Positions 15,380 through 55,269 of a stretch of DNA of 64,000 nt are shown one piece after another. Both the position numbers and the translations under genes were made by a program. Under the pieces are notes generated by a model. The model searched no databases. It was given only the letters and a program-made list of their open reading frames with translations, and had not been told where the DNA came from. Position 1 is the stretch's first letter. Every line of letters begins with the position of its first letter. This DNA is from Psammoneis japonica (taxonomy: Eukaryota), in NCBI GenBank assembly GCA_008632985.1, contig QPGO01000008.1:786979-850978 (forward strand), read 5' to 3'.

Positions 15380-15389
15380 CTCCCCAGTT

Positions 15390-18300
15390 TGCTTGGGGAG
15401 CCACAGAAACAGATTCGACTTTGGATGGAATGAAGTTCCAGAACATGAGGGGGCGGAGAAGGTCCCAGATTTGGGAGCAACCCCAATGCTTGCTGAGAAT
15501 GTCAGCAGGGTTGCGGGAGCCTTCGATGAAGTGGAGCTCAAGGCAACCAGAGGCAATTGCCTCACGCACATGGTGGAACAACAGTGCGGTGTGTCGCTTG
15601 TGTGGCTTGGAGTGCGGGATGGTGGCACTGTCTACAACCGACTTGTTGTCACCGAACATGTGACTGACATTGCGGATCGGGACGCCAAGGTGGCGCAGGG
15701 TGATGCGCAGGTCGACAATCTGCTCGACACAAGTCCTTGCGGCAACAAATTCAGACCCGCAGGTGCAGTCTCCACAGTGGCTTGCTTCTTAGAAAACCAA
15801 TCAGCCGGGAATTTGTTGAGGAAGTGGAGCATTCCCATGACAGAGCGTCCGGTGAGCATGCAATGGTGCAAGTTTGCATCGACGTAGTGGGTGGCAGTGA
15901 CGCACTTGCCAAGGGGCGGTGGAGCGTCCTTCGGGATCATCTCTTCTGCTTCGCCACACATGGAATGCATCCATTCACAGGCCGGAGCAGGGAGATCCGA
16001 ATGGTCGGGCTCTTCCGTGCGAACGCGGAGAGCGCCGTGTCACACATTGGAGAGGTGCCCACAGATGCGTTTGGCACGATCCAAGTGGCCTTGACGGGGC
16101 GCAGCTCGGAAGCTAGAGAGTGACATGACAGCCGTGGTGATGTCAATTCGACCAAGGGACACTGCCCATTGGAGTGAACCAACAAGAGACTGGAACTTGT
16201 GAATGCCATCGGGCCCCAGCAGTTTGGAAGTGTCCAGTTCGGGGTGGTCACCCTTCTCCAGAGGTGACAGGGCGTTGGTGGTGGGTTTCTCCCCAAACAG
16301 TCGGGTGCAGCTGTCGACCATGCGCTCGATGTACTTGCGCGGAGACAGGCACAAGGTGCCGTCGGGATCCTGGGAAAAGTCGCAACCCAGATGGAACTCA
16401 ATGGGTCCCGCACCCTTGAGCTTGAACTTGTGCTTTTCCGTGAGAGTGTCGACAAAGGATTGAGGGTCCTTCATGGCAATGGCGAGGTCATCCACACAAA
16501 TGGCAATGCACTCACAGTGGTCGCCGTTCCTGCGCATCCAAATGTTGGGTTTGGCGCGGCAGGGGAAGAAGCCTTCAGCTTGCAGGCAGTCGGCGAAGCA
16601 CTCGTGCCAGCGGAGACCGGAGCTGCACAGTCCATGCAGGGCCTTGTGGATGACAAGGATGTGTCCTTCGAGTTTGCCAAATTCGGGTCCGGCTGCAATG
16701 TGGAACTTCTCCTTGGTGGTGGCTTCAAGGCAGGCATTGCCAATGTTGGTGGCCCATGTCTCCAACTCGTTGAGTTCGGCCAGGAAAATCATCAGCCGAA
16801 GGCCACGGAGGGAGACCACTCCGGAGTGGACACTGTCGATGGGCACGTCCGTGAGGTGCCCATCGGCTGCGAGTTGTGCCTTGTGGCGACCGTCGTGTTT
16901 CACATCGCACACTGGGTGCACTCGGATCTTCTTGTGTCCTGCAGGAGGAGTGGAAGACTCGAAGGGCCCGCAGTCATGGAAGACTTCGTATTCCCCGAGT
17001 TGGTCCATCTCGAGATTAGTTGCGTCTCCCCATTTGCGGTTGCCGTTGCGTTCGTCCAGTGACATGGCATGTTTGCAGTTCTGGGGAACTTCGCATCTGC
17101 ACTTGTAGCGAGGTGCAGTGTGGAAGGAGTGAAGCTTGGCTTGGTTGGCCATGCGAAACAGCTTCTTCTGGCGCCTCGCGATGATGCGGAACCGCTTCCA
17201 GCCATCAGTGTCGAGAAGTCCATTCTCTTGTGCATGGATGGCGCAGGTGACGGGGTCGTCCTTGGCGATGATGGCAAGAGGCTCGGACGTGATCTCCCCA
17301 CTTTCCCATTCAAGCATGATGTTGTAGCTTGAGCCTTTCCAGGTTGGGTCATGAGGCTTCAGAGGTCCTTCGTGTGACACGATGCGTCGAAATTTCCAAA
17401 CAGCAGTGTCTTCGTCTTCTTGCTCAATGTGATTCATGATGTCGTTGCAGGCAAGGACTTCCTCGCATTCGTCGTTGTTGACAGAGCAGACGAACTTAGT
17501 GAGCTCGGGATTGCCGTTCACTTTCCATTCGTGGTCTTCAATGGCCTTGACGATGCAAGCTCTGTGGCGTTGTCCGTCCTCTTGTGGCTGCATGAGGAAG
17601 GTGCGTCCGATGATGTCTTGCGGATCAAAAACTGGCATCTTTTTTTGTCGTCATGGCGAGATTTGATGATGGGTTCAGGTGGCTCCCCATCAGGAGGATC
17701 AAGACGCAGGTTTCGAATGGCAGGATCGGTGGCAGCGGATCGTACGTTGGACCGGCAGAGGATCTTCTGAGTCTCGTCAGAGAGAATCTTGAAGGTCATC
17801 TGGTGGCCGACGTGCTCAGCAATGCCAACAAAGCGTCCATGCAACTCACGGGATTCGGACAGCCAATCGGAGTCATCAAGGTGGAAGCACACGGGTTCCC
17901 ACCAGTGAAAGCGAAGCAATGGGCTGATGTCAGGGTGGAGCCAGTGAGAGTCTCGAGGGGCGTGTGCCAGTGGAGACGTGGGGACGCTGCATGGTTGAGC
18001 ATGAAGCACACGCACATGAGCGCCAGCAGCCATTGTGGGCAGGCGAACCGAAACGATCCATGACAGTGTTCGCCATGCACTTCACGGTCTGGCATCAACG
18101 CTCGGCAAAGTTCTGGTGTTGCCAGTGAGGCTCACTTTGCCAGCTGGAGATGAAGAGGGCTCGTAGAATCCCGAGCACCTTGTTGCTGATCTCAACTTGA
18201 GCACGGTCGCTGATGAGTTTGGACGGGGCACCATGCTCATGGATCTGATCCTCGAGTGTGTTGACAAACTCTTTGTCCGTCTTGGTGCCGCAGATGTCAG

Positions 18301-20958
18301 TGACGGTAGACTCGGTGCCAACAAACAGTTGGGCGCTGGTGCAACCAGAGTCGACGGCCGGGGTGTCGGCACAAATGGTGTCAGTGGCGACAGGCTCGTT
18401 ACGGCGGTGCACATTAAGGGCGGGGTTGGGTGATTTGTGGGCCTTCCTGAGGTGTGCACCGGCGGGCATGCGGACGTGCTGCGTGGTGCAGTCAAAAGTA
18501 CGACGGACCGCATCGGCAGGTGGGAAGCCAAAGCAAGGCCGAAGAGACTCGAAGGGGGGGTCCTTGGGCTGCACAGTGCGCTCCGGGGGCGGAACGTTGT
18601 CGTCCTTGGGGTCAATCGCGTGTAGATGACACTCGTAGAACACGTCGTCGTTCGGAATGAGGTGATCATCGAGGGCGGACGCGTGATCGGCAGACAAGGA
18701 AGCGGACATGATGGTCTCGTTGACGACGACACGATGACGGTAGTTGCCGCATTCGTCAAATAGGTTGGCAGTGGGATCGTCCTGCAGGTCAGAGATCGCG
18801 TCGTGCCACTGGTCGTCGTCAGTGACAGAGTGATCGAGGACGGAAGGATCCCATGTGTCATCACCGGTGAGGATGACATGGGGCAGGGTGTCCCATTCGG
18901 CATCAGTGTAAGGTCGCATGGCAACACAAGGCAGGCCGCCCTTGATGTCAATGGGGACGACATGGCCACCAGGAGTGGCAACACGTTGCAAGCCATTGGG
19001 CACCTTGACAGAGTGATCGTTGACATCCTGTTTGTGCCATTCGAGCTGGCCGCAGGAATGAATGGTCTTGCCCTTGCCCGTGTGTGCGCACTGATGGAGG
19101 ATGGCGATGATGGGACCACGCTGGGTCTCAATGACGGCACCAGCGGTGACAATGGGGATGTCCACCAATTGATGGTCGTCAATGCCCTGAACGTCGACTT
19201 GGCGAGAGGTGCGTGCAATGACGCGAACGTCGTCGCCAGCAATGCCGCCGTTGGCCCCACGATTGACTGGAGCACCAGTGCGTGTGGAGCGATGAGCAGA
19301 GGCAGAGCAAATGACACGTGGTTGTCAACGTGGCGGCAAGTGCGGCCGTTAAGTTCCATGTCATCGGCAGGAGCTGGCGGGGTAGAGGGAGCGGCGGATG
19401 GCCCCGGTTGACTGGCGTTTGGGGCTTGGTTAGGAGACAACAGACGTTGCAGATCACCGGGTGGCAGTGGCTTGCGCTTGGTGAGGTGCGCCAGGATGGG
19501 ATCATCCGAAGTGGCACCCACATTTGGAGCGGAGTCACCAGAGTCAGCAGGAGTCATGTTGGACAAGTTGACATCACCGTCACTCCCAAGGCATTGGTCG
19601 TGAAGGTTGGCCACAATGGACTCATGGCAGTTGCTGGCTCGCGGGTTGCGGGGAGGCGGACGAGAATGCACAAGGATGATCGCCTTGGAGGAATGGGGCA
19701 ACGAATCCCAAAACCATTGGTGGTCAGGAGGGAGACGTTTCCATTGGTCACCGGTGAGGCTGGGACCACGGGTGTGGGCAGCATTGGCCTGAAGGACGTC
19801 AATGTCACTGTCAATGTCACAGAACACATCGTCGGACGGTTCCTCGGAGCAGACGTCGTGTGCGTGTGTGGCACGTCGGGGAGCTCGAGGTGTCATCTTG
19901 GGTTGAAACGCACTGTCGCATTGGGCCGCCGCGGAGAGGAGCAAGCCACAGCATTGATCGCACGTGAGGCTCTTGCCACTCTGCGTGTGATGCTGATCAG
20001 CTTGGTTCTTGACAGCACAGAGTTCCTCGACAGGGTGTGCGGCATTCTCGAGCATGACGCACTTCTGTCCTTCAGAGAAGTGGTCACTGGCTGGGATGAG
20101 TGCCTCGCACTTGCGCAACTGATCTTGCCAATGAAGGATGAACCCGTGGGTCGGACCTTTCCAAGTGCCATCACCAAGACGTGCAGTGGCAAGGCACGTG
20201 AGCAAGGTGGAGGACTCGACAGATGCGCGGGTGGAGGCAAGCGCATGCTCAGACAAGGCGCGGCAGACGGTCTGGGCATCAGAAGACCCCACATTTTCGC
20301 AAATGAGAGCCTTGCCCTTGTCGGTGAGAAGGATGCGTTCGAAGACGGCGAACATGCACTTTTGCTGTTCAGCAAAGAGCAGTTTGTCTTCGGGGCTGGT
20401 CGGTTTGTACGACGAGTCTAGAATGCACTCGACGTCTTGGGCACGGGCTTGTGCCACAAGTGAGGTGTGCCAAGTGTGCCACTGCTTGTCGGATTTGAGA
20501 GCCGTGAAAGCGGTGGGGTCACGCTTGATGCCTCGCTTGAAGTCTCGCACCGGGTCGCGTGCCTTGGTCGGGTTGGTGACATGCGGAGGTGCGAGGGGTG
20601 AGCTGCCGACAGACACAGAAGACATGCAGTCGGGGCTGAGGCAGCAGGCAAGGAACTCGTCATGCGTGAACAACGAGGAGTCATTGGCAACGTCAAGACC
20701 TTCGTGTGCTTTGACAATGTGCAGACTAACTAGAGCTGCTAACATGTTCTTATAACCGCGGGGCAAAGGGATCACATTGGTGCCGTTGTCGCACTCAAGC
20801 GAGTCGATTTGGGACGGCATGAACGTGAACAGTTCTTGACGCGAGTCCGTGCCGTCTTGGGCCAAAGCCAAACGAAGAGGGCTCCCAGCACCTTGGGCAA
20901 GCATGGTTCCAACAACGTGCTCAAAACCATCGGTTTGTTGCTGACGAGTGAGAACCAT
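15390..20958 (-). pseudogene. gag-pol of Copia element 1 (frameshifted, Tyr->Cys/His)
   Basis: gag DFKRGIKRDP; integrase HRRNEPVATDT...SEPHWQHQNFAER; chromo-like VWKFRRIVSHEG...LEWESGEITSEP; RT DVKHDGRHKA...IGNACLEA...KALHGL...CVDDL; RNase H VDANL...GDNKSVV...NPADILSKHW. Confidence 0.92.
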
Positions 20959-21901
20959 GGTGGACAAAAGTGGTGTCAGGACAAGCAATTCTTGTTGGGA
21001 AGCGAAGGCAGACTTGAGACTTGGGTGAGAATGGACTTGACTTGAAATGGACTTGACTTGAAATCTTGAACTGCCTTAAAATCAGAAGTCGCCGGGCTGT
21101 GCCATCCCGTTCGTTGTCAAGTGCTAAACTTCCCATCCGGTTCACAGAGTTGTGCCGGCACGTCCGAACCCGCAGCCAGCGGCGCTTTGGGTTGCTTGCG
21201 AGTGGAGCAGCGGGTTGCAAACCCCTGCAGGTGAGCTGACCAGAGGTGGACAAGACCCCCGAACCGTTCTTGTTTTGTGTCGGTTGGATTTCCCGATCAG
21301 GCTGGCCAGTTGACGCAGGCACCAGGCGCTGTGGACGAACGAACAAACGCGGGAAAACACCCTCACCCCAACGTGGGCTGCAATCACGGCTGCTTGCTCT
21401 CACAGTCGTCCTCGTGGACCTGGTGGGAACTGTGGAGCACCAGCAGTCTGGGGTGGATCAGGTACAATGGACTCAGTGTGCTTGTAGAGTGGCAGCAAAA
21501 CCGCAGTCCGAAGAGTGGGTACAAGTTTCTTTTTTGGCCGTGAAGATGTGCACATGTGTGCATGTCTTCAGCGACGAAGATCCTTGAACATGTGGGGTTC
21601 TTGACCGTTAACCGATGAATGGGCATGTCAAGGGATGAGGATCAAGGACAGACTTGGACATGACCGTTGATGCATGTCTTCAGCGATCAAAGGTGGCACA
21701 ATCAATCCAGACATCCAGCATCAAGGAGACTTGACGGTGACGTTAAATTCCTGCCGATGCCTGGCATTGAACGCGCGCAGACTTGCCGATGCATGTAGAA
21801 TGTATGCGGAGGTCCACGCAGAATTGAGGTGGCGTCGTCGGTAAATCAGCGACGACGATGGCGGTTGCTCAATGGGTTGACAATGAGCAAGACTGTCAAT
21901 C

Positions 21902-22177
21902 TGACAGAAATTGAAGGCAAATGGCAAGAATTCAAACAATGACTCCTTGCTGCTGTCTAAATGGCAGATGAGTCTCCGCTCAGAGACCGTTGCAGGAGCC
22001 GAAAGACGTGCAAGTCGGTACAATCGGGCTGCTGTTGTTGTTCTTGTGAGCCTTGTGGCTCGAAAGCAAACTACATCGCGCGCGAACGCGCGGAACTAAA
22101 GCACACAAAACTGTGCGCGGTAAACCAAACAGCGCGCGACATTTCGCGCGCACCCAAATCCTGTTCAAATCCTGTCA
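21902..22177 (-). repeat. 5' LTR of Copia element 1
   Basis: Direct repeat of 15104-15379, upstream of gag on the minus strand. Confidence 0.95.
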
Positions 22178-25100
22178 GGCATTGGTCCTGGATCACAAAT
22201 TGAAAATTTGCCATGCACACCAATGGCCCCAAAGCTTGCAATTTTCACACAAAGGACTGGGGCACTGTCAGCCAAAAAAACAACAGAAGCAGCCATTTTA
22301 GACAAAGAAGAAAAGTGCAACAAAGACCACAACCTGTCAGACTGCTGTGTCTGATCAACTCAACAAGATGCTGGGCTGGGACGGCGATGATGACACAGTG
22401 ATGATGATGAAGAGGAAAGTGAGCAGAGGATCTCAGAGAGATCCAGCCACTGTCTGCTGTGTGCCAACATCTGTGCTGCTGCTGTGTGTGTGTGTGCAGC
22501 ACTCCCAACCCAATTGGACAGCCATCACCAAGGTTGCCAGACAAAGCTCCCCATCAACTTTAATTGCAAAGATTTCTGACAGAATCTTTGACAGGGCAGA
22601 GGGCTGGACCCTCCTCTCAAGGCTGTGCCAGCCCTCAGCCCTGCTCTGTGGCCAACTGCCAAAGGTGCAATGCTGCTGATTGCAAACAATGGCACCCCAC
22701 TTGAAGAAGGACATGCACCAAGCAAAAGCAGCAGTGGCTTGATTGCACAGCAGAAAACCTGGTCAACCCATGTTGGTGTGGTGGCTGCTTGCAGCTCTGT
22801 CAATTTGCTTGCTCAGACTGCAAATGCACTGGCACAAGATCACTGCTCAAGACATCCATCTGCACCGGACAAGGTGCTGTGAGTTGGTTTTTTCTTGCTG
22901 CAAATGCATTGCTTGCCACCAAGAAACATGCCATGTTAAAAAGATGTTCTGACACAAGCTGCTTTTGCATCTGCCAGCACATTCCTGAGATCAAGGCTGG
23001 CTCTGTGTGACCTGCTCAAAGCTTTCTTGCTCTGGAACCCTCAAACAAAACAAGGTCATCAATGACAGCAATTGAGCTTGAAAGGATTTCACCAAGCCAC
23101 ACAGCCCCCTTCCACTGGAGAAGCGCTGGTGTCAGCACCAGCCCTGCTTTTGGACAGCAGTGGCTGCCCTGAGTTCCATGCTGCTGATGCTTGGCAGCTT
23201 CCCATCTTGCTGTTGTGACACTGCAATGTCCTGAAGTTGTTCAGAGGAGCTGACTTTTTGAGATGATTGAGTGACATGTGTTGCGTGAACCCACTGTGTC
23301 TGCATGGAGGTCCTCACCAGGGCACAGGCTGCACACCACTGTGTTGTCATTTTTTGTCATCAACTTTGGCAACATCAGAAGCTGTCATGGGCTTGACATT
23401 TGACACACATGCTTGCAATGATGGCTGACACTCAGGCAGAGCAGGCGTGCACACTTGTGATTGTTGTTGCAGCCTGAGGCACTGTGCAGCAAACAGTGTG
23501 GGTCCACTGCAACCATGACATTCTTGGCACTAAAAATCTGATCCACATTGGCAAGAAGCAAAGTGCAAAACAAAGGACAACAATGCCACACTTCCCCATT
23601 TAACAGTCTTCATTTGATGGCTGCACAACCAGCACAAGAGCAAAACAATGAACTGCAGCACACAGCAAACAACAAACAAGCAAAAGGCATCAAAAGAGCT
23701 GGCAAGTCTCAATGAAAGTGAGTTGATGATGCAATGTTGTCTTGCTCTCCAGCACAGCAATTTTTTGGAACATCAAAGCCCTGCTTGCATTGATTGTCTC
23801 TTTGTGCCATCAGCCCAGCTGCTTGAAATGCTTCCTCTGTGTGTGTGTGGTGCACCTGACGTGACGAACGCACAAACCCCAGGTGCAGCTCCACTCAAAG
23901 AAAACAATGGCATCACAGCGCTTGCCGTGCATTTGTTGCAAAACACAATTCAATGCATCCCGGACATGCAAATGGCAACTGGCATTTTCATCAAGTTTCT
24001 GCCACTCAGAAGAACATTGTGAGTGGTGTGTTGCTGGTGCATTGTTTGAGTTCAGAACAATTGGACCAAGCTTGGCGGCAGTTTTCTGCATCCATGTGGC
24101 TGCCGTTGGATGGGTTTGGTGGCAGTTTTTGCATTTTGGAAGGCTGCCATGATGAAGTGCACACAGGAACCAGCAATGACCTTGAAAGCACCAAGTTCCC
24201 ACAAATGCTCTGCAGTCAAAATCATGGTGCCAATTCTGCAAAGAGATGCACAAAAGTGACAGTGATTGAGCAACTCAGCAATGGTCCTGACACAAACAAA
24301 ATCTGGGAAAGTTTTTTCTTTTGCACTCAATTTTTGACTGCAACTTGTCATCTTGCATGATGTGCTTGTTGTCTGCCAAGCCAGAAGCTGTGATTGCCAC
24401 CAAGGATGTGGCTTGCCATTCTTCTGGAACAGATCACACCAGCTCTTGTTTGGCACTCAGTCCACAACTCATGTTGCTTGATGGCATGTTGTCTCTGGGT
24501 GGCACAGGTGTTGCCAGTTGAGCCTGGAGGTTGGGGCAAATCAAGCATTTGTCTTTGGCCTGGAGAGCGCATGTCACTCCTGTGCCTTTGACCACAGGAA
24601 GTTGCCTGTTTGCTTGACCCATCAGGTCACAGCTGTTGAAATGAACAGCAGTGTTCATCTGCAAAGCAGGAAAAGCTTGCCAAGCAGACCATGCCTTTGA
24701 TGGAGTGCAGGGTTTGGGGGGCTCCGTTGCACCAGTGACATGGTGCAGTGAGTCTTCACTCACAGGGAGTGGTGATTTGGCGTGCAGTTAACTCACAAGT
24801 TTTCTTGTCATCTCTGCAGCGGTGTTTTTCACTCAGAAAACAAGCAAAAGCTTGACCTCCACATTCTGATGGTGCTCTTGAGGCAACATCACCCTGTGCA
24901 ACCAGTTTCAATGGCAATTTTTGACATTGGTGTGTCTCAATCTTTTGAAACATGCTTTGAACCTTTGCAACAGAATCAGAAAAAAGCAGTGCCACAAGCT
25001 GGCAGCTGTGATTGAGACTTGCACTTTGACTCTGACCTGCACCTGGCTGGCAGGGACAAAAGCAAAGTTGGCAATGCAGCGCATCATGTGGTTGAGTGCC

Positions 25101-27797
25101 TCTTGGCCAAAATCTGCTGCCAGAATGATCACAATTGCAAGGCAAAAGTGACAGCAGCGAGTCTTCAAAGAAGTGCATTTGCATGCTGAAATGGCAGAAG
25201 GTGACCATCTTGTTGCAGCCTTTGCACAGTGATCTGATGCTGATGGTCCTGCATGCAAGAAGAGTTGCGTGTTGTGACAGAGCAGGCAGAAACTGCTCAA
25301 GAAGATGCCTGATGGAAATGAACAAGTTGCCATTCCCTGGCAGCTGCCTTGCATTTGTTGGTTAACTGCAGAGCATCCAAATTCCTGTGGCTCATGAAGT
25401 GGGGTGGCACAAGTCTTGTGCCAGCTTTCTCTGTGGTGTGTGTTGAGCAGTGTGGCATTTGGTGTGAGGAGTTTGTCAACACCTTCAAGGTGCCTGACTT
25501 GGAGGGAGATGCACTGTGTGCCACTGGATTGATGTGGTGTGTGTGAAAGATGACCACAAAGTTGGAGAAAGCCATTGGGGTGCACACAAAATTTGAGTTC
25601 CACCTTCCCACTTGCAGTGTGCTGGAGGAGGGCATGGAAGTGGATCAGATGATGACACTGTTTGAGGATGTGCTTGGACCAGATGACTTGATTGAGATTT
25701 GTGCAGGAACTGTCCTCAAATGGTTGGACATGGTGAGAGAATGTCTCACCTCTGTGGAGTGCCATCTCACAGGTCTCCTTTCCATTGCAACTTGTTGGGT
25801 GCTGACCTTCAAACCCTTGAGCGTGCTGTCCCTCAATCAGTGACACAGATGCCCAGCAGCAACTGTGAAGGCTTGCACCTTGCTGACTGCTGTTGTGCTT
25901 CGTCTGTGCAGTGCAGATTGAGTTTGCTTTGAGAAGTTGGAGATTTTGTAAATCCTGGAAATCCTCAGAGGCAGTCACCTGAGAAGCTGCCTTCACACTT
26001 TTGATGACAACGTTGGCAGCCATGAGGTCAATGTTCCACAAGGCAACACTTCTCTTTCATTGCCACCAAAACCGCAGCAGCACATTTGGGCTCAAACTGA
26101 AAAGGTTCTGGAAAAGGTTGTCTCATCCCCCCATGTGAGCAGCAGGCTAAGATGCTGCTTTGGGTTTCCAACACATTCAATGTGGCTTCCTTGCAAATGA
26201 CACAAAAGATGTGAAGCTCTCAACCAGACTTTAATTTTGCCTTGCTCAACCATCAAGACCCTGCAACGGTGATGCAAATTCCCACCTGTGTCTGGAGTGC
26301 ATCTGCAGTGGCTGCAGTCACCTCAACAGCAGGAAGGCCTTCAGATGTGACCCCCATGATGCCAACACAGCACAGAATTTGTTTCCATCCGCCCACATGC
26401 AACTCATGCTCTGGATTGGTCATGCCTTTCAGAAACTGGCCCCAAGACACAGCACCAGACTCAGTGCAAGACACAAAAAGAGCTTTTCAAGAGACTTTCT
26501 TGTGTTTCCCAGGAAAGTTCAAGCTTCTGCAGTTTTTCAATGCGCCCATGTGTCAAGCTGACCTTTTCTCCTTTGGTTCATTTTCTGTGCAGTTGCTGCT
26601 GTTTCCGGACCCAGTTTGCAAGCACTTCTGCCACTGACCAGACCATTTGCTCTTGCAAACTCCAACAATCTCAGCCATTTTTGCATCCAAACAGCATCAT
26701 GTTCTTTTGACAATGAGACTGTTTTGCTTTCACCACCTTTTTTCATTTGCTTTGAGAAGCCCACACATTAAAATTGGTGGTTTTTTTGCTGCTCCAATGC
26801 ATGAGACCTGACAATCTTGCCAAGGAGAGATGTTTGCAAGTTTTGTGAGGCAGCAGATGCAGCACTGTTTTCATTGTGGGCTGACGCTGAGACTTCTGGA
26901 AACATCTCTGTGACAATCTGTTCCAGCAAAGAACTGCAGGGGCTCACCAGGTTGTGACACTCATCAGTGGTTTCTTGGTTCGATTGATTTTGAACCACAG
27001 CAGATCCCTTGCAACCATGTTTGGAGTTTTGATTGTGCTTTCTTCCATTCTTTTTTTAAACCATTTTTTCTTTTGCTGGCAGAGGTGCGCAAAGGTTGAG
27101 CTTGAGTTGCCAGCAACACTGACCAAAATCTTGATTCCACTCTTCTTCCCAGGTGACCCAGTCAATCAAAAATTGCGGCGAGCTGAGCAATCAAACAAAG
27201 ATGTTTTTCCCTCGTTGCTGTGAGCAATCATTTGAGCAATCAATTTGACGTCTCCGTGTGTAGAAGTGCACTTGTTCCTGGGTGCAAATTCCCGTGCTGA
27301 TGACAGAGAATCTTTGAGGCTCTGTGAGTGACACGAAAAGCAAAACAACACTTGTGCTCTCTCTGTGCTGCATGCGTGCCAATCAAATGTGCTCAGATGC
27401 AGTTCTGCACACGGCTCTACTCTGATTGTCTCCTTTCGCTTGTTGACTTTGACTCACAGTCCGCCGGTTGTCGCATCCTTGGCCTTCGATCGATTTGTGA
27501 GTGGAAGCTGTCGTGACACGAACGACAAACGAATTGCGCAGAAAATGCACTACAATCTATGGAGAAAGGTTTTGCTCATGCACCAGATGCACGCGAAACG
27601 ATTTTGGAGGCAGTCATTCAGTGGAGGATGGCAAGATGGTGCCAACAAATCTGTTTGCTTTTTTTATTTTGAGTGGACTTGAGACTGAGACAATGGTGTT
27701 AGGCTGGCATTGTGTGTTCTCTGTTTGCACATCACCATGCAGTTGATTTCTCACACCCATCAAAAGCAGCTCCTCGTTGTTGATTCCAGCATTAAAA

Positions 27798-36560: not shown

Positions 36561-37129
36561 AGATCTGGACAAGCGTGGAGTGCCTTTGAAGTGATGACTT
36601 TGTCACTGGAGATCTCTTGTCTCTGCAGTCTCCACATTTGCTTTGCTGTTCATCACGGTGTGTCGTGTCATCGTTGCTGCTGGTGTGCATCTGCTCCCGC
36701 TCTGAGTTTGGAGCCAGTCCACCACGCAACTCGCACGCGGCACAAGCAAGGACGGACTGAGTGTGACACCATGACATCATTTTGTGTTGTTTTGATGAGT
36801 GAGTGTTGAACACAGTTTGACAGTGCACGCATGTGACACGCGCCCTCCACACACGTCTCGGAGAAAAGCCATCCGCATTCTCCAATTCGCTCACTTTTTC
36901 AACTTGAACAATGCCATTTCAAGAAAACATGGGTGCTTCTAAACATGGCAAGGGTTTTGCAAAAGAACAGGAGCCGTTGATCACCACAGAGGGAAGAGAG
37001 AAACAGCTGAGGATCATGGAGGCCGTCGGAGACCCGCTGATGAGCATGTGCTCAGTGCAGCCTTTGTCTCGGTTCTCGGTTTCACGGTTGTTCAAACAAT
37101 CTTTGCATTGCAAGCAAAGAGTGAGGTGA

Positions 37130-41560: not shown

Positions 41561-42138
41561 AAAATGAACAAAATCAAAAATGCTCTGTTGCCAAGCATGG
41601 CTCTGTTGCCAAGTGCAAACTGGTGTGCATGCTGCTCCATCCCCAAGTGCTCCCATCAACACCACATTCTTGCAGTTGACACAAAAAGAGCACTGTGCAT
41701 TGCAAATCTTTGATTGCATTGCACCATGAAGTGCTGGGCTTGTGGGTGGTGCCAAGTTTCCTCAGATTCACAAGGCTCTGTTTTGGAGTTGTTGGGTCAT
41801 TGTCTTTTAGCAACTTGCAAACTGCACAGTGTGCCATGCACCACAAATCAAATTTTGAATTTTGGCTCCCTTCCTGTTCTGCTTTTTTCCTGCTTTTGTC
41901 ATCCCACAGCCTGCAAGGAGAGCATGCATGATTGTCTTCTTTGTCCACAAACTTGTCTTCAAATGCAGTTTTTTCAGCATGTCCAAGACAACAAGGACAT
42001 TCACATCCATTGGTTCTCAACATGCTGCTTCATTTTTGGGGCAAGGCATGTGCTGATTGGAGGTGAAGTCATTGACCTTGTGCTCCACAAAGCCACATTG
42101 CAAAAGATGTCTTTTCTCACACACAAAAAGGATTTCTT

Positions 42139-45100
42139 GCACTTGCAGGAACAACTCTTGGACCACAAGTGGAAATCAGAAAAGTGTTCTGTGAGAATCC
42201 ATTGATCTTTTTGTGCACACTTGTGCTTGGATGTTGCCTTTTCCGCCACAAAAGCACATGACAGCAAAGCATCAAATTTTGTTTGGGGCCATGTGCAAAA
42301 GAAACATTGAGCTGCATTTGGGGCTGTGCACAATCAAATCTTCCTCCTGTCACACATGTGTTCATGTCATGTGCAATGATGAGCTTTTTTGGCGACACAT
42401 AAATTTCTGCACAAATTGTGAATGAGATGGCAAGACCTCCCACATGAAAACACTTTTTCAGACTTTTTTGGTTTTTGGCAATTCCTGCAAGTGCAAGAAA
42501 TCCATCAAACAGTGCAAAAAAGTGTTTTCACAAGGGAGGCATTGCTGCCTCATTCCTCATTTGTTGAGACATTTGTGTGTTGCCAAAAAAGCTCTTTGTT
42601 GCATGTGATGTGAGCCCACCTGCAGGAAGATTTGATTGCACATGACCCCAAATGCAGCTCAATGTTTTGCATGTGACCCCAAGTGCAATTTGATGTTTTG
42701 CCATCATGTGCTTTTTGGCAGGAAAAGTCACACACAAAATCAAAAGATGAGCGACAGCATCAGCGGATTCTTGTGAAAACACCTTTCTGTTTTCTGACTT
42801 CTGCTGCTTGTGGTCCAAGAGTGAACCTTGCAAGTGCAAGAATGCCAAGTTTGGGAAGTTTGCTGAGTTTGGTGGGTTTTGGGAGTTTGCCAAGTTTGAA
42901 AAATTTGGCAGATTTAATGAGCTTTCTAAGTTTGGTGAGTTTGGCAAGTTTTCCAAGTTTGGCAACTTTGGCAAATTTGGCAAGTTTGCCAAGTTTGGTG
43001 AGTTTGGCAAGTTTGGTGAGTTTGGCAATTTTGGCAATTTTGGTGAGTTTGGTGATTTTGCCAAGTTTGGCAAGATCACCGAGTTTGGCAATTTTGCAAA
43101 GTTTGACAAATTTGGCAAGCTTGGCTGGTTTGGCAGGTTTGGTGGGTTTTGCAAGTTTGGTGAGTTTGCTGAGTTTGGCAAGTTTGGCAAGTTTGGTGGG
43201 TTTGGCAAGTTTGACAAGTTTGCTGAGTTTGCTGAGCTTGGCAAGTTTGGCAAGTTTTTCAAGTTTGCCAAGTTTGCCAAGTTTGACAAATTTGACAAGT
43301 TTGCTGAGTTTGGTGAGTTTGGTGGGCTTGGCAAGTTTGGCAAGTTTGGCAGGTTTGGCAAGTTTGGCAAGTTTGCTGAGTTTGGCAGGTTTGGCAAGTT
43401 TGGCAAGTTTGGCATGTTTGGCAAGTTTGGCAAGTTTGGCATGTTTGGCAAGTTTGGCAAGTTTGGCATGTTTGGCAAGTTTGGCAAGTTTGGCAAGTTT
43501 GGCGAGTTTGGCAAGTTTGACATGTTTGGCAAGTTTGGTGAGCTTGGCAAGTTTGGCAAGTTTGGTGTGTTTGGCAAGTTTGGTGGGTTTGGCAAGTTTG
43601 GTGAGTTTAGCAAGTTTGGCAAGTTTGGTGGGTTTGGTGAGTTTGGCAAGTTTGGCAAGTTTGGCGAGTTTGGCGAGTTTGGCAAATTTGGCAAGTTTGG
43701 CAGGTTTGGCAAGTTTGGTGAGTTTGGCAAGTTTGGCAGTTTTGGCGAGTTTGGCAAGTTTGGCAGGTTTGACAAGTTTGGTGAGTTTGGCAAGTTTGGC
43801 CAGTTTGGTGAGTTTGATGAGTTTGGCAAGTTTGGCAAGCTTGGCGGGGTTGGCAGATTTGGCAAATTTGGCAAGTTTGGTGAGTTTGGCAAGTTTGGCA
43901 AGTTTGGTGGGTTTGGCAAGTTTGCCAATTTGGTGGGTTTGGCCAATTTGGTGGGTTTGGCAAGTTTGGCAGGTTTGGTGAGTTTGGCGAGTTTGGTGAG
44001 TTTGATGAGTTTGATGAGTTTTTCAAGTTTGGTGAGTTTGGCAAGTTTGGTGAGTTTGGCAAGTTTGGTGGGTTTTTCAAGTTTGGCGGGTTTGGTGAGT
44101 TTGGCAAGTTTGGCGAGTTTGGTGAGTTTGATGAGTTTGGCAAGTTTGGCAAGCTTGGCGGGTTTGGCAGATTTGGCAAGTTTGGCAAGTTTGGTGGGTT
44201 TGGCAAGTTTGGCAAGTTTGGCAGGTTTGACAAGTTTGGCAAGTTTGGCCAATTTGGTGGGTTTGGCAAGTTTGGCGGGTTTGGTGAGTTTGATGAGTTT
44301 TTCAAGTTTGGTGAGTTTGGCGAGTTTGGCAAGTTTGGTGGGTTTTTCAAGTTTGGTGGGTTTGGTGAGTTTGGCAAGTTTGGCGAGTTTGGTGGGTTTG
44401 GCGAGTTTGACAAGCTTGGCAAGTTTGGCAAGTTTGCTGAGTTTGGCAAGCTTGGCAGACTTGCAAAAAGGCTGGGCATCACACATGGAGCAGGTGTCAT
44501 GGGAGGCTTTGGGGCATGCTTGCACTGATGGCTTCAAGCCAAGTGTGCAAAGTTGTGTGGATGTGGCACAGCCATTGCCACAAAACAGAAGTCAAGGGAG
44601 CAGCAAGAATTTCATGGCATGCTTGAGAGCTGCTGCAGCAGATGTTGCTTGTTGACAAAGGGCATGGCCGGCAAGCTTCTTGGAAAAACCAAGAGCAGAT
44701 GTTGTGAGGAAGAAGCGGTGCTCCACTGCAAAGCAGCATTTGTGGCAAGCAGGACACTGGTCAAGGCAACAATGAGTTGATGCGTGGTTTGTTGTCACTT
44801 TGTGGGCCAGCTGATTGTTGAGTCTTTGGGGCAAATGCATGCTTGCCTCAACAGAAACAACAGGAAGTTGACTGTTTTCAACACACACCCAGAGGCTCTG
44901 ACTCAACAAGACAGTGGTGCTGACCTGCAACTGCATGAAACAATGCTCTTTTGTGCCAAGGTTGCAGAGAAATTTGACAAGCCATTTCAGTTTGAACCAG
45001 CGCAGCACACCCTGGTGCAGAGCTGGGGCAAGAACACAGTTGTCAAGAAGGGGGGGCATCTTTGAAGTGGTGTTGTTGCCAGCAGGAAGCAAAAAACACA

Positions 45101-48461: not shown

Positions 48462-51400
48462 AGCAACAAGAGTTCCAGCTTCTGATCTGTGATGCAGGTT
48501 GGTGACACACGCAATTTTGCTGTCAGTGTTTGTGAGAGTTTTGGTCTCTGTCCTTGCTTGTGGACCATTGGGTTTATGTGCTGACATCTTTTGGTCCATT
48601 GTTTTGGCCCACTTTTTTTTTGTCATTGTCCAATCTGTGGTCTTCTTGCGGGTTGGCACTGAAACAGTGTCTTTTCTCTCTTCTGACATTTTTGGTTGCT
48701 TTTGGGGCTCCCTTCTCCTTCTCTTACTTCTTGCGGATTTCCACATTCATGAGGACCAGGATCACTTTGACAGCTCACACACTGTTGAGGCTTGCATGCT
48801 GTTTGCATGATTGCTGTCACCCCAGCTCATGCTGTCATCCAGCTCATTTCTGTGGTTGTGAGCAGGGACGATGATGCCAATCTGTTTGGGGATGATGCAC
48901 AGGATGATTTTGAGCAATGAGTCCAAGCAACAATCTCAAGGACATTTCTTTGCATCTTGAGGAGGATCAAGCCACATGCCACACTGCTGTGGCAGTTGTT
49001 CCTCAAGAAATTGGTGGCATCATCAACAACATTGCTTGGACCAGTGGTCCACGAGTTGTTGATCCACATGCCATGGCATGCGGCCTGCATTGCCAATGTC
49101 CGACGTCATTCCATCATTTGACAACAATTGCACCCCATTGTCAGAAAGGTTTGGAGTCAAGAAGATTGACACCAAGGATTGCAAGGTGACTCTCATCAGT
49201 TGGACCAACTCTGTTGGCAAACTCTTTCTCATGAGCAGCATGGATTTGGCGTCTGTGTCCAGAGGAGAGATCCAAGGATGGGGGCACCTCAAGAGTTGAA
49301 TCTTGCAATGGATTGCAGTTTGTTGGACCTGCAAGAGGTTGAGGATCATGTTTGAGACTTGCTCACTGTGGGTGACCAATGTGATCATCAGAACTCATGG
49401 TGGTCTGCAGAGTTCTTTCTCAACTCGATTGGTGTTGCTCCATGTGGTGATGTCCAAAAGTGTGCCAATGGACCTGCGCATGGGCCCATCATTTACAAGC
49501 TTGTTGCTGCCAGTTGCATTCATCCACTGCGTTGGCTCTCTGTGTGGTGGTGGACAAACTCAAGGCTGTGAAACTCAGGGAAGAACTGGGTGAGAACATC
49601 AAAAACTGCACTGCAAAGTTGGTTGAATTGTGCAGACATCTGGAAGGTCATCACAAACTTCCTGAAGATGCTGCTTCAATCCTTTACAGTGGTCTTGCAA
49701 CATTGACTGTCAAGTCATTCTGGATTCAATTCATGACTCTCTTCAATGAAGTCAACATGGATCCAATGAAGCACACATGTGGTGATCTTGTTGTTCATGC
49801 CAACAAGTCATGTGCCAGTTTGGTGGATGCAAAGAATGGACGCCTTTTGATGCAGGCAAGTCCAGTTCTGCTGCATTTCTAAACTGTGTGGATGACTGTG
49901 TTTGCCACAAATGTGGTCAGCAAGGCCACATCCATCCACACTTCCCTCAGAACAGCAATGACAAGTCAAGGAGGTGGTGGTGGATGTGGAGATCAAGGTT
50001 GTGGTGGTGGTTCTGGAGATCAAGGCAGACAAGGATGTGGTTGAGGAGATTGTGCAATCCTTGGCAATGCCAGATCACTTGCAATCCCAGGACCCTTGCA
50101 GGATTCCTCCGAGATGTGGAGAATCTCACACTCGAGTCTCCAACAGTGTGACCAAGCATTGGCACAGCAGATGTGGGTGTTGGACCACTCATGAAACTGC
50201 TGGTCATTTAGCTCCAGAGGGAGGCACCAATGCAAACAGTCAGAACCCTGCTGCTGCTGCTCAAGATCAATCCAAGGGTCACACCTCAAATGCCAACAGG
50301 AGCAACATCACTTGGGACCCTTCTGTGCAAGGTTCTGGCACTGCTCGAGCTTCCCAAGAATGCACTTTGACCCAGAACACATCAAATCAAATCTTTGTGG
50401 GTTGTGCTTTGGTGCGCAACTTGTTGGGCCAGTGGATTGTTGGTTTGCCATTCACAAAGGGCTCTGTTCTCCTTAAAACCGATTGTCAGAGGGAGACCAA
50501 CATTAAAGAAGACTCAATTGAGTGATGTTGGAAGCATCACAGAAGCCATGCACATTTTGTTGGCACACATGACATCCATGTGGTCTTCAGTGATGCTCTG
50601 TTGTGTGATTTACAGGTGTCATCCACATGCATTCCTGCAGACACCAGGATTTGTTCAACAAGATGTGGAGATGCCCAAGAAGAAGAAACCACCCAATTCT
50701 GCTGAAGTCTCACCATTTTGTGAACATTGATTTGCAGGAACAAGTTGGTCATCTTCCGGTGTCCTTCTTGTCCCCTCACAACAAGCAATTTGAGATTTCA
50801 CTCAATTCTGGGGTGAGCGCAACTTCTGCTTTTGACAAGGAGGACTTTGCACCTGGAACTTTTGAGTTGTTTAACAACACAGAACCACTTCCGTCATCCT
50901 TGGGTGTTGGAGGTCATGTTCATGGGAGGTGTGGGAGTTGTTGAGTGGATGGTGTTTGATGATGTGCCAGATGTGAGCAACACATCCGTGCCAAGTGCTT
51001 TTACATTCCAACCTCTCCTGTGAAGTTGTGAGTGTCACTCATCATGTGGGCATGACAAGAAGAATGGCAGGGGTTTGGGCTGCAGGCTTGATGTTGACAC
51101 CTCAAAAGACCACGCATTCTTTCATTGGTGTGACAGTGGCACTGTTGCTGTGCCTTGTCATGAAACTAACAGGCTCCCCATTGCATCTGGAAGGAATCCT
51201 TTTTGGCAGTGGATCAGAAGAAACACATCTGCACATGTGTGACAGACAAATTTAGCCAAAATTTGCATCAGAGACAAAAGAGGCTGTTGCAGCAGCACAT
51301 TTGCCTTGGTCATCTTGGCTTTGATGATGTCAAGTGGTCAGCTGGGAAAGGGCACCTTGGACATGCTGCAAGAGCCATCAGCTCTGCCGCTGTCAACAAT

Positions 51401-54400
51401 CCCAAGTGTGCCACGTGCCAATGTGGTCGCATGACTTGTCATCCAACCAGAGCTGCACAAACTGAGAAGGTTCCCAGTTGGGATCAATCTCTCAATGCTG
51501 ATGTTCTTCATCCTGGACAAGTGGTTGCTGCAGACCAGCATGCATCCTCCATTCAAGGTTGTCCATTTGAATCTCATGGGAAGACCAAAGAGGCAGACAA
51601 ATGTGGTGGCAGAGCTGTTTTTGTTGACATTGCATCCGGCAAGGTGTCAGCTCATCATCAAGTTTTGTCTGGCTGTTTCAAGACTGTCAAAAGAAATGGC
51701 TTTCAAGAGGGAGGCTGCTTCTGCAGGCATTTCCATTCAATCCTGCCAATTGGATGGTGGCATGTTCATGAGCAAAGAATTCCTCAAGGAACTTGAGGAG
51801 AAAGGACAGGGCAGGAAGCTTGCTGGTGTTGGTGCACACCATCAGAGTGCAATTGCTGAGCAAGCAATTCATGCTGTCACCAAAAGAGCTTGGACTGTGA
51901 TGTTTCATGCTGCAGTTTGATGGCGGATGCACTGGAGATGGATTTGTGGCCCATGGATGTGAGTCATTCTGTCCACTTGTGGAATTTGACCCCATGAATG
52001 GATTTTGATGGATTGTGTCCCAAACAAGTCTTCACAGAGTGAAAGTTTCTTCAAGTTCAACCCTCACAAATTCAGCTGTTTGGGGTTGTCTGACCTGTGT
52101 GTTGGATCCAACATTGCAAGATGGCAAGAAAATGCCATGTTGGAAAGCCCAAAGTTGCAGAGGACAATTTGTGGTCATGCATCTGTCCATGTGAGTGACG
52201 TTGGTCAATTGGAAACCTCAAGAGTGGTTCTGTGTTGCCTCAATTCCATGTTGTCTGTGACAATTGGTTTGAGATGGTTCATTTGGATGATGAGTGCAGA
52301 CCACCAAGAAACTGGTTGGATCTCCTCACCACTTCAAGATGTCACATGGAGAATGATGAAGGATTGCACCTGCCTCCATTGTCAGATGATTGGCTTGCTG
52401 CTGAAGAATTGCATGATCAACATGCTGAACAGGAAGAGTTGCAGAGGCAACAAAGAGCACAAGTGTCAATGCCAATGGAAAAGAGGGAGAGGACACCTGG
52501 ATCCCCTGGAGCACCTTCTTCTTCTCAAGGACAATTCAGAATCCAGTGCTCCCAGACGGTTGAGTGTTTCATGCTCCAATGACATTTTGCCAGATCTTCC
52601 ATTGTCTCCAGATTTTGTTCACAATGAAAATGCTCCTCCAAGTGTTGAAGCTCCTTTGGCTCCAGCTGATGCAACAGAGGCTCAAGAGGGAGACTCTGGA
52701 ATTCCCAGATCTCAAGATGCACCTTTGGTTGCTGATCATGACAACCATTTCCCAGAAGCTCCAGATGCTTCAACTCCGACTCTGACTCAGACATGCTCTG
52801 GAAGAACAGTTTGTCCTCTAGAACATCATGGCTGTGAAGGGACTGACAAGCATGGTTGTGATGGACATGCCCTCAAAGGCATGGCTTCTTTTGTTTCAAA
52901 TTTTACATGTTGGCTCAGGTCTGGTTGCAGGACAGTGGAATTTGCAAAGATGCACGAGATGTTTGCTGACCTTGATGGTGATGGCATCAATGCTGCATGT
53001 CCACTGTCAGCACATTTGTTGGATTCTTTTGCAAGCAAGAAGACTCACAATCCTGATGCTCCTTTGTGTCATGAAGTGATGGCAGGACCATGTGTGGAAG
53101 AGTTCAAGAAAGCTGTGCATTTCAAGATTGTGACTTGATGCAATGCAATTCATTTGCTCTGGTGCAACGTGAGTCGGTGCAGTTGAGTGCAAATGTTTTG
53201 CCTGGCACTTGGGCACTTGTGATCAAGAGACACCCTGATGGATGTCTCAAGAAGTTCAAGGCATGGTTTTGTGTGCAAGGGAACCATCAACAAGAAGGAA
53301 TTGATTTCTTTGAGACTTGTGCTCCAGTGGTCCAGCAGAGCATGGTTCAGTTGCCCACATGTGAGTCTGTCAAATCTGCATGGATTGGCATCTTGTCAAG
53401 TTGACCACACCCTTTTTTGCTCAGGCAGACAAAGAGGATGTTTGTGTTGAATTGCCTGGGCTCTTTGAGACAGAAGATGAAGGTGGCTGTGCACATCAAA
53501 GCTGAACAAGAGCTTGTGTGGATTGCAACAAGCCGACTGCATGGTTCCAGCATTTGTCCAAGGGTCTGGAAGAGGTCAGATTGCACTCTAGCAAGAGTGA
53601 TCCATGTTTGTTCATCAGCAAAGACGTTGTTTGTCTTGTGTGTGTGGATGATTGTTTGTTCTTTGCAAAGATCTTACAAAATTGACAACATTGTGAGTGA
53701 ACTCAAGGCCAACAGTTGTGAACTTGATGTCAAGGATGATGCAAATGGTTTTCTTGGCATCAACATTGACAGGGATGATGAGGCTGGGACTCTCCATCTC
53801 ACTCAAAAGGGTCTCATCAAAAAGAGTGTTGCTGCTGTGAATGTGAAGGATTGTCACATGAAGAAGACTCCAGCCAGCTCAACTCCTTCAGCTGCCAACA
53901 TGCCGATGGTTCCAAGTGAGTCAAATCATGGAGCTGCACCAGCATCATTGGCATGATGCTCTGCTTGGCCTCCAATGCAAGGCTTGCATTCAACATGCAG
54001 TCCACAGCTGTGCTGGCTGGGTTCATGCACAATCCCAAGAAGAGCCATGAGGAAGTGGTCAAGCAGATTGTTGGGTGTCTTCAAGGCACAAAAGATTGTG
54101 GTGTCAGTTTTGCTGTCTCCAACAGCTCAAGGTTGGATTGTTGTTGTGATGTGAATTTTGCTGAACTTTGAAACTGCAAGGACCCACAAGATCCTGTGTG
54201 CATCAAGATTTGGTCTGGCCACTTGTTGACCATTGGTGGCAACCCATTGATTTGGGCTTCCAAGCTGCAGACCAAGATTGCGTTGTCCACACTCAAGGCA
54301 GAGTGTGTTGCCCTGTCTCAGGCAATGAGAGTTCTGCCACTCATGAGAGAGCTTGTCAAGGAGGTCTCCTCTTTGATGAGTGCTGATCAGGATGATGAAA

Positions 54401-55269
54401 TGTTGCTCCATTCCACTGTTTTTGAGGACAACAATGGTGCTTTGATGATGGCCATGATGCCAAAGATGGCTCTGCACACCAAGCACATTGGGGTCAAGCA
54501 TCACTTTTTCAAGTCTCACATTGTTAAAAAATTTGACTCCATGATTTGCACTCAGAAGATTGCCAGTGAAGAGCCATGGGCTGATGCCTTGACAAAGGGT
54601 TTGGTGCAGAAAAAGTCTGAGCATTTGCAGAAGAAGATCATGGGGCAGCAGGATGTGGCGGATTCATTTTTTGTGTTCATGTTGATTCAAGTTTGAATGT
54701 GTGTGTTGCACATGAAAATGGGGTGATCGCAATCAGGTGTGACAACTGGGGTTGTTGCAACTCTGCATGTGGTTTTGCATCATTGCATGATGGTTTGCAT
54801 TTTGGTGTGAACTTCATTTTGAAATCTCAGTGGCGATCTGATGCCTTGCAGTTGACATCTTCTCAAGAGAGAGAGCAACAAGAGTTCTGGTTTCTGATCT
54901 GTGACACAGGTCAGTGATGCACGCAATTTTGCTTTTGGTGTTTGTGAGAGTTTTGGTCCTCTGTCCTTGCTTGTGGACTCTTGGGTTTCATGGGCCAACA
55001 TCTTTTGGCCCATCATTTTGGTCTGCTTTTTTTGGTCATCATCCAATCTGTGGTCTTCTTGCAGGGTTGGCACTGAAACAGTGTCTTTTCTCTCTTCTGA
55101 CTTTTTCAGTTGCTTTTGGGGCTCCCTTCTCCCTCTCTCACTTCTTGTGGATTTCCACATTTGTGAGGACCAGGATCACTTTGATGGCTCTTGTGCTGCT
55201 GTTGAGGCTTGTGTGCAATTTAGATGATTGTTGTTGCTCCAGCTTGTGCTGTCATCTGGCTCATTTCTG
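48462..55269 (+). mobile_element. Older, degenerate Ty1/Copia LTR retrotransposon
   Basis: ~390-bp direct repeats 48462-48852 and 54874-55269; purine tract AAGAGAGAGAG before the 3' LTR; zinc knuckle CHKCGQQGH; LLQQHICLGH; FVDIASG; GAHHQSAIAE; RT LPGTWA...KKFKAWFCVQG...ETCAPVV...CVDD; RNase H WASKLQTKIALSTLKAECVALS...TKHI...ADALTKGL; no TSD recognised. Confidence 0.9.

Follow-up and report, generated by a model that had tools for sequence, protein, structure and literature searches.

The DNA analysed here is a 64-kb stretch of Psammoneis japonica (64,000 nucleotides of contig QPGO01000008.1, referred to below as the window). It is eukaryotic DNA with host-type genes of normal composition at both edges and in one island, and it also contains two blocks of transposon-rich DNA that are almost devoid of the dinucleotide 5´-TA-3´. 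The explanation that we favour, with a probability of roughly 85%, is a chromosomal, region-targeted hypermutation of TpA to TpG or CpA that has struck these blocks and left the neighbouring host genes untouched. Its effects are most legible in two long terminal repeat (LTR) retrotransposons, Copia 1 and Copia 2, in which conserved tyrosines have been replaced by cysteine or histidine. The changes are specific for TA, give both products, took place after integration, end at sharp borders and occurred at a high rate; they show no clustering by strand and depend on the flanking bases. The window is a new instance of a recently described TpA to TpG/CpA hypermutation, and the clearest so far on transposons.

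Over the whole window, the observed/expected ratio (o/e) is 0.13 for TA, 1.60 for TG and 1.71 for CA. Within the blocks, it ranges from 0.02 to 0.13 for TA, from 1.4 to 1.8 for TG and from 1.6 to 2.3 for CA. Counted per kb, the blocks hold 0 to 11 TA (o/e 0.00–0.23), compared with 21 to 48 (o/e 0.37–0.74) in host DNA, taken for this purpose as positions 1–6000, 11001–13000 and 63001–64000. The totals are 188 TA in 56,014 bp of blocks versus 344 in 7,986 bp of host DNA. Block 1 (5431–10899; per-kb TA o/e 0.00–0.20) has largely kept its CG dinucleotides. Its left border follows the final dense TA at 5426, and TA density is back from 10900. Block 2 (12513–63057; 50.5 kb) contains both Copia elements, other repeats and a 9-bp satellite, and is bordered at 12512/13334 on the left and at 63058 on the right. 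The borders are sharp, being resolved to less than 100 bp on the TA-rich side. The GC content of the blocks equals or exceeds that of host DNA. CG is about normal in Copia 1 (o/e 0.83), in block 1 and in host DNA (about 0.7–1.4), and falls to an o/e of 0.02–0.4 in the older parts of the blocks (13001–15103, 22178–27000 and 37000–63057).

Copia 1 is a complete LTR retrotransposon of 7074 bp on the minus strand (15104–22177), as established by its LTRs, its target-site duplication (TSD) and its colinearity with a Copia polyprotein. The two LTRs are 276 bp each (3´ LTR, 15104–15379, TGACAG...CTGTCA; 5´ LTR, 21902–22177), and the flanking 5-bp duplication, GGCAT, is perfect (15099–15103 and 22178–22182). 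The element aligns by tblastn along positions 20958–15411 with the 1881-residue Copia polyprotein P0121, in frames -2, -1, -2, -1 and -3, and with at least four frame changes it is dead. Its RT frame (reverse transcriptase; 536 codons, 16040–17650, minus strand) matches the Pfam family RVT_2 with an E value of 9.6e-21 and 74.9 bits, for a cut-off of 31.6. An RVT_2-type RT, direct LTRs of the TG..CA form and a 5-bp target duplication place the element in Ty1/copia. TA stands at an o/e of 0.13 in Copia 1, while CG stands at 0.83.

Copia 2 is an older LTR retrotransposon on the plus strand (about 48462–55269), known by its LTR cores (about 48462–48852 and 54874–55269). It belongs to another Copia family, being only about 25% identical to the relatives of Copia 1, and it is more decayed than Copia 1, with frame shifts, TGA stops and an o/e of 0.04 for TA and 0.11 for CG. 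The RT and RNase H region lies in shifting frames at 53150–54696 (plus strand). Its RT pieces score 25.8 and 18.7 bits against RVT_2, under the cut-off of 31.6. Relatives of Copia 2 reach up to 158.6 bits with RVT_2, carry gag_pre-integrs upstream of it and align to Copia 2 at E values down to 2.4e-58.

The first-pass annotation had singled out eight motifs in which tyrosine appeared to have given way to cysteine or histidine, and all eight are present where it placed them. In Copia 1, on the minus strand, these are CVDD for YVDD (16487–16498), IGNACLEA for the AYL form (16721–16744), KALHGL for KALYGL (16628–16645) and SVHSGVV for SVYSGVV (16814–16834). In Copia 2, on the plus strand, they are TCAPVV (53315–53332), CVDD (53641–53652), AECVALS (54298–54318) and VKHHFF (54493–54510), each with tyrosine as the residue of the relatives. 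A multiple sequence alignment of the Copia 1 RT with 120 listed relatives of 1690 matches, at 49–68% identity, has tyrosine in 118 of the 120 at YVDD (and cysteine in none), 119 at AYL, 117 at KALYGL and 118 at SVYSGVV. A local search gave the residues at the CVDD position of Copia 2 in 87 relatives: tyrosine in 79, phenylalanine in five, tryptophan in three and cysteine in none. At the other three Copia 2 positions, the tyrosine consensus is 0.81–0.92. Tyrosine is therefore the ancestral state in the relatives, and the direction proposed for the change, TA to TG or CA, is borne out.

Loss of tyrosine extends well beyond these motifs. Among 347 conserved columns of the Copia 1 RT alignment, 291 are identical and 56 changed, the commonest changes being Tyr to Cys (eight) and Tyr to His (seven). 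Only 4 of 21 conserved tyrosine columns retain the residue, and tyrosine makes up 0.7% of the RT frame versus a median of 4.6% in the relatives. A frameshift-aware tblastn vote was also taken over the whole polyproteins, with 270 relatives for Copia 1 and 87 for Copia 2, requiring at least 10 votes and a consensus of at least 60%. The 26 conserved tyrosines of Copia 1 are now Cys (11), His (6), Tyr (5), Phe (3) or Trp (1). Retention is thus 5/26, compared with 518/578 for other residues (Fisher, 1.5e-15). The 12 of Copia 2 are now Cys (7), His (4) or Phe (1), so that none is retained, compared with 265/395 for other residues (Fisher, 2.4e-6). A stricter vote retained 6/27 and 0/11, respectively.

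Both elements together, including the Copia 2 CVDD, which lies outside the high-scoring segments of the vote and was added from the separate local search, have 19 Tyr to Cys and 10 Tyr to His changes, without strong strand asymmetry. The stricter set gives 16:10 (binomial p 0.33). Sorted by third base, the products of the tyrosine codons are TGT 8 versus CAT 5 and TGC 11 versus CAC 5. Since TAY to TGY and TAY to CAY occur within the same open reading frames (ORFs), action on both DNA strands, as first suggested, is upheld. Both RTs having CVDD instead of HVDD is unremarkable by itself, because the tyrosine codons are nearly saturated with two roughly equal outcomes.

Single-step changes at conserved codons were classed by their ancestral dinucleotide. 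The 84 changes of Copia 1 include 23 of TA type (13 TA to TG and 10 TA to CA), 19 of CpG type and one ambiguous, with four other A/T to G/C transitions and no other G/C to A/T transition. The 37 remaining changes are transversions or multi-step and probably reflect divergence of the family, not decay. In Copia 2, 135 changes comprise 15 of TA type and 30 of CpG type. Arginine is retained there at only 5 of 20 positions. Two dinucleotide processes consequently feed the TG and CA excess, the CpG-derived part lying mainly in older DNA, and the loss of tyrosine is explained by the TA process alone. Counts of TA by codon phase are 10/7/10 in 1696 codons of Copia 1 and 0/0/2 in 504 codons of Copia 2, compared with 14/36/49 in 946 host codons. 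Present-day NTA codons amount to 7, 0 and 36, respectively. No codon phase is spared the loss of TA, so the loss is mutational and not a matter of codon choice.

The timing of the process can be read from the LTRs of Copia 1. These are 94.6% identical over 276 bp and differ by 11 events: four TG/CA doublets, three TA/CA, two TA/TG and two CA/CG. The 276 bp contain no further substitution and no indel. LTRs are identical at integration, and these now differ at TA sites; the change must therefore have come after insertion, at the level of DNA and on both strands. The DNA-level origin put forward in the first-pass annotation is accordingly borne out by a pair of LTRs that, within an intact TSD, differ only where TA or CG stands against TG or CA. 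The LTRs imply 10 or more ancestral TA sites, and at least 13 of the 20 site-copies have changed. The mutation rate at TA exceeds that at CpG by well over a factor of ten, and would be hundreds of times that of other sites. The LTR pair serves as an internal clock, in which most TA sites changed before any ordinary substitution.

The same signature recurs in the other repeats. Seven repeat pairs inside the blocks (merged families, excluding the satellite D1 and also D14, which lies in normal DNA) hold 78 TG/CA doublets. CA/TG accounts for 83 of the 246 adjacent double mismatches in repeat pairs, and the next class for eight. Between the Copia 2 LTRs there are 18 such doublets. In most blocks the TG:CA ratio is near 1:1. 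A processive single-strand deaminase was sought through strand clustering: runs tests over the full set of TG/CA labels yielded z values between -2.66 and +3.17, whose sign varied among regions, and polarised doublets gave 42 runs versus 42.6 expected, so that no clustering was found in either set. The two strands seem to have been hit independently, with their changes intermingled.

The 188 surviving TA are strongly biased with respect to their flanks (chi-square p 8e-45). Survival was expressed as density relative to host DNA and to 36.8 kb of unmutated relatives, host DNA being, in the trinucleotide excess comparison, a poor baseline for the ancestral composition of the elements. It is lowest at ATAT (0.3–0.6%), ATAG/CTAT (0.7–0.9%) and ATAC/GTAT (0.7–1.7%), followed by GTAC (3–4%), ATAA/TTAT (3–5%), CTAC/GTAG (9%), GTAA/TTAC (11–14%) and CTAG (11–16%), and is highest at CTAA/TTAG (23–32%) and TTAA (33–46%). 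These ten flank classes are roughly fitted by an additive per-strand rate that depends on the base 5´ of the T and falls in the order A > G > C > T. Written instead for the base 3´ of the A, the same rule becomes T > C > G > A; the data fit both readings alike, including the tyrosine codon products by third base and the trinucleotide excesses relative to host DNA. In either form, it is a constraint that any candidate enzyme must reproduce.

The wider Copia 1 family was viewed through the short-read run X1, in which 14,504 contigs lie on the Copia 1 stretch at a likeness of at least 80%. Summed depth is 55,000–214,000 on Copia 1 versus about 65 on the flanks, about 1000-fold, depth not being equal to copy number; the family is very abundant in the sample of this run. 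Over Copia 1, 437 of 479 variable places are transitions. Among the 40 listed of 491 variable places, 28 set TA or CG against TG or CA. The listed places include those with TG in the window and TA or CA in other copies (six single and four double), CA in the window and TA in others (two), CG in the window and CA in others (two), and TG or CA in the window and CG in others (ten).

Outside the window, Cys or His occupies at most 4 of 28 tyrosine columns in 117 of the 120 Copia 1 relatives. The remaining three, from other public assemblies, have them at 20/28 (P0107), 13/28 (P0056) and 8/28 (P0095). Eight public metagenome loci encoding relatives of P0107 at 76–82% identity have a TA o/e of 0.47–0.70; loss of TA is not a trait of the Copia family. 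Judging from these sequences, the same hypermutation seems to be recorded in other public assemblies. Two further Copia proteins of other public assemblies, P0154 and P0184, are free of tyrosine.

The proposed step would be an A:T to G:C transition at the A of 5´-TA-3´, on either strand. As TAY is the only form of tyrosine codon, an event on the sense strand would give cysteine and one on the antisense strand histidine. The outcome would be the destruction of YVDD and other RT motifs, together with the removal of TAA and TAG. The likeliest chemistry would be that of an enzyme deaminating adenine to hypoxanthine in DNA that is double-stranded or opened for a short time, and the likeliest targets would be silenced or foreign DNA, as a form of genome defence. 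A second and slower process on the same blocks converts CpG to TpG or CpA, most simply by deamination of 5-methylcytosine.

Several observations weigh against this account or narrow it. The excess of Tyr to Cys over Tyr to His (19:10) would allow a mild sense-strand bias. The activity is read from fixed differences, and the palindromic nature of TA means that attack on A or on T gives the same products. At some sites (e.g. 16282/16283), moreover, the window has TG, about 50–89% of the family depth has CA, and almost none has TA. Part of the mutation load is inherited from mutated source copies, or the copies were duplicated after mutation; given the shared CA at sites where the window has TG, not every tyrosine loss need have arisen in this copy.

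The self-complementarity of TA is also what keeps a closely related explanation in play, namely that the same TpA-specific DNA process is carried out by an enzyme attacking thymine, for example by JBP/TET-type oxidation to 5-hydroxymethyl- or 5-formyl-uracil mispairing with G. The TG and CA products would be identical, the tyrosine products sorted by third base suit either attack, and the flank hierarchy can be expressed by the base 5´ of T or by that 3´ of A. Thymine hydroxylation in some protists prefers TpA. Nothing in the data speaks against an attack on thymine, and the ADAT2-like protein of the alga Bigelowiella natans (discussed below) is, in the text of the source preprint, a candidate only; even so, we regard thymine as the less likely target. 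Editing before integration, with an ADAR-like activity on retroelement RNA (A to G) and a deaminase on cDNA (T to C in the sense strand), would suit the facts that both Copias are retroelements, that the TG or CA state of some sites is common to many copies of the family and that ADARs favour a 5´ U, as noted in the same preprint (10.64898/2026.01.13.699255). The first-pass annotation had dismissed RNA editing partly because it gives one class of change only. It was right that the origin is not at the RNA level, but this argument leaves room for cDNA that is edited before it integrates. What excludes that option is the LTR pair, together with the TA-poor flanks outside the elements and block borders that do not coincide with element ends. 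The LTRs of a single insertion, with its TSD intact, differ at nine TA-type events, and the flanks of Copia 1 (12513–15103 and from 22178 onward), the satellite and a non-RT frame in block 1 are equally TA-poor. The TA specificity (23 TA-type changes versus four other A/T to G/C) is stricter than a neighbour preference, and the older element is the more depleted one (TA o/e 0.04 versus 0.13). Pre-integration editing of RNA or cDNA is not the main cause, and we consider it quite improbable as an explanation.

Two further possibilities would deny that a mutational process at TA exists at all. A modified base at TA in repeats could have been misread as G or C during sequencing or assembly; unusual base modifications are plausible in repeat DNA, and run X1 may be the window's own source and thus not independent. 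A duplex modified on both strands, however, would give conflicting TG and CA reads and break de Bruijn contigs. Instead, a contig of 2587 bases at a depth of 65 spans the TA-poor, single-copy stretch 13001–15126 with two other letters, and other contigs span 22150–23000 with none. Site- and copy-specific states, such as those of LTR 1 versus LTR 2, are stable, and P0107, P0056 and P0095, from other assemblies, share the Tyr to Cys/His pattern. We hold such an artefact to be very improbable. The remaining proposal, that the elements natively avoid TA or that the whole TG/CA excess comes from CpG decay, has next to no probability. A mild shortage of TA is usual in genomes and is seen in the host DNA here (o/e 0.37–0.74), and CpG decay does contribute (19/84 changes in Copia 1; arginine retained at 5/20 positions in Copia 2). 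Against it, catalytic tyrosines are replaced, the non-coding LTRs diverge at TA sites, unmutated relatives have a TA o/e of 0.47–0.70 and Copia 1 has kept its CG (0.83) while losing its TA (0.13).

The closest known system is that reported by Mettrop et al. in mutation-accumulation lines of B. natans, where 231 of 302 nuclear mutations fell in integrated nucleocytoplasmic large DNA virus (NCLDV) and virophage sequences (bioRxiv 10.64898/2026.01.13.699255). Of the 231 viral-region mutations, 230 were A to G or T to C, all 230 of them at TpA, and these regions mutated at about 1000-fold the rate of the remaining genome, in some lines only (10.64898/2026.01.13.699255). The preprint also describes 124 clusters (runs of at least three 1-kb windows) poor in TpA and rich in CpA and TpG, and finds RT and DDE domains over-represented in coding sequences depleted of TpA; as the agent, its authors put forward a deaminase of adenine in DNA, with an ADAT2-like protein as a candidate (10.64898/2026.01.13.699255). 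As far as the preprint text goes, B. natans and the window share A:T to G:C changes at TpA that give TpG or CpA depending on the strand and are confined to discrete regions. In the window, the LTR pair has nine TA-type events, two CpG-type and no other; both products occur (Tyr to Cys 19 and Tyr to His 10, with 78 doublets); and the changes are confined to two sharply bordered blocks beside normal host genes, the rate here coming from fixed differences.

The two cases differ in extent and in target according to the same text. The B. natans inserts have lost only part of their TpA (Rho TpA 0.45, with no depletion in the virophage region), compared with near-saturation in the window (o/e 0.00–0.23), and the B. 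natans targets are NCLDV and virophage DNA, compared with LTR retrotransposons and a 50-kb repeat block here. The words LTR, retrotransposon, context and flanking are absent from the preprint text, whose supplements may hold flank data and transposable element annotations. Beyond that text, the window adds saturated LTR retrotransposons, the proof from LTRs and TSD, the contrast with CpG, the flank hierarchy and the absence of strand clustering; a Copia family of such abundance and a saturated block of 50 kb are likewise absent from it. From the published figures of 211 mutations, 6169 TpA and 3132 generations (10.64898/2026.01.13.699255), we compute about 1e-5 mutations per TpA per generation. 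If rates are comparable, the state of the Copia 1 LTRs would correspond to about 1e5 generations, over which the LTR pair should gain far less than one ordinary substitution, as is observed. Full-text literature searches returned, apart from Mettrop et al., only fungal repeat-induced point mutation (RIP), editing and unrelated work, and nothing else on TpA to TpG/CpA hypermutation.

Comparison with better-known systems brings out what is distinctive. Fungal RIP resembles the process in the window in making dinucleotide-specific transitions at the DNA level, in killing transposon ORFs and in leaving sharp blocks beside normal genes. However, RIP converts CpA to TpA (C to T) and produces AT-rich, TpA-rich, stop-filled DNA, whereas the process in the window removes TpA, leaves CA and TG in excess, raises the GC content and removes TAA and TAG. 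ADAR and APOBEC3 editing likewise leaves deaminase-type transitions in genomic retroelement copies, and ADAR prefers a 5´ U. These enzymes act on RNA or minus-strand cDNA before integration, with one strand class per enzyme and a loose neighbour preference. The window, by contrast, has both classes (with 10 Tyr to His changes), made after integration as the differing LTRs attest, under a strict TA specificity and with DNA other than retroelements affected. CpG decay shares with the TA process the TpG and CpA products and a self-complementary pyrimidine–purine step, but it cannot turn tyrosine codons into cysteine or histidine and is much slower here. It is present as a second process, with CpG depleted and arginine changed to Gln, Cys, His or Trp, and methylation would be its presumed basis. 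CpG decay is also repeat-specific, yet much slower than the loss of TA.

The remaining sequences of the blocks are less readily named. TA-free DNA cannot contain TAA or TAG, which explains why the blocks are poor in these stops (269 TAA and TAG versus 2678 TGA) and rich in long ORFs, with 111 of the 121 ORFs of at least 130 amino acids spread over six frames. Most of these long ORFs are spurious. From the 121, 93 were scanned against Pfam, with 28 left out of that scan (19 in Copia 1, 6 in the satellite and 3 in Copia 2, the last three scanned separately). The main frames of block 1 are the non-RT frame mentioned above, on the plus strand (5544–8654; 1037 codons with one TGA), a frame at 9197–10372 and a plus-strand frame of 452 codons (9855–11210). 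The 1037-codon frame contains one tyrosine, 40 cysteines and 52 histidines, and so repeats the tyrosine loss of the Copia elements. Atlas leads suggest DUF6729 (0.94) for its first half and a DNA_pol_A_exo1 3´–5´ exonuclease (0.88) for its second, an architecture found together in one Atlas cluster. The block 1 frames have no Pfam match even at an E value of 5, a word-based homologue search with the 1037-residue frame found nothing at an E value of 0.001 among 8000 scored candidates, and no convincing terminal inverted repeats were found in a search of block 1. Block 1 may be a non-retro mobile element; its identity comes from the Atlas leads, which leaves the label 'DNA transposon' unproven. 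The end of the frame at 9855–11210 presumably carries a motif resembling that of Ulp1-type proteases. The right border of block 1 (about 10900) falls inside this frame, the first 350 or so codons having two TA and the last 100 or so a normal density.

Within block 2, the 9-bp satellite (42928–44457; about 170 units, consensus AAGTTTGGC) is without TA. The junctions of its in-register units read CA in 77 cases, TG in 27, CG in six and TA in none. This alternation could be as expected from an ancestral TA or CG converted either way, and is ambiguous between them. A frame for an FKBP-type isomerase lies on the minus strand at 59702–60409 (Pfam E 1.3e-10). At three conserved tyrosine positions of solved FKBPs, it has kept one, changed one to histidine and one to phenylalanine. 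An AlgH-like frame (DUF179; 248 residues, 35906–36649, minus strand, E 4.2e-6), for which no match was found in the PDB, has no tyrosine, nine cysteines and ten histidines. Both frames may be pseudogenes or captured fragments, in which case the process would be regional and not specific to elements. The host-type genes outside the blocks comprise CENP-S (556–1566, plus strand), Mpv17/PMP22 (2115–2528, minus strand), a RING finger gene (4056–4796, plus strand) and a ferric reductase (63316–63999, plus strand).

Chromosomal hypermutation from A:T to G:C specific to TpA is otherwise known from a single preprint of 2026, and the window shows it at saturation on ordinary LTR retrotransposons. One practical consequence is that gene predictors will overcall genes in TA-poor DNA, so that predictions there deserve distrust. 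A broader and more tentative interpretation, to which we give somewhat less than an even chance, is that of a general genome defence, RIP-like and chemically opposite to RIP, that would mark silenced transposon blocks and not only viral inserts. Its agent might be adenine-editing or thymine-modifying, acting fastest at ATA/TAT and slowest at TTAA, and it would perhaps extend beyond one alga, with traces in P0107, P0056 and P0095. If the enzyme is a natural DNA adenine deaminase, it would be a rare case in nature of what adenine base editors were engineered to do and, as a genome defence, an analogue of RIP whose chemistry runs the opposite way.

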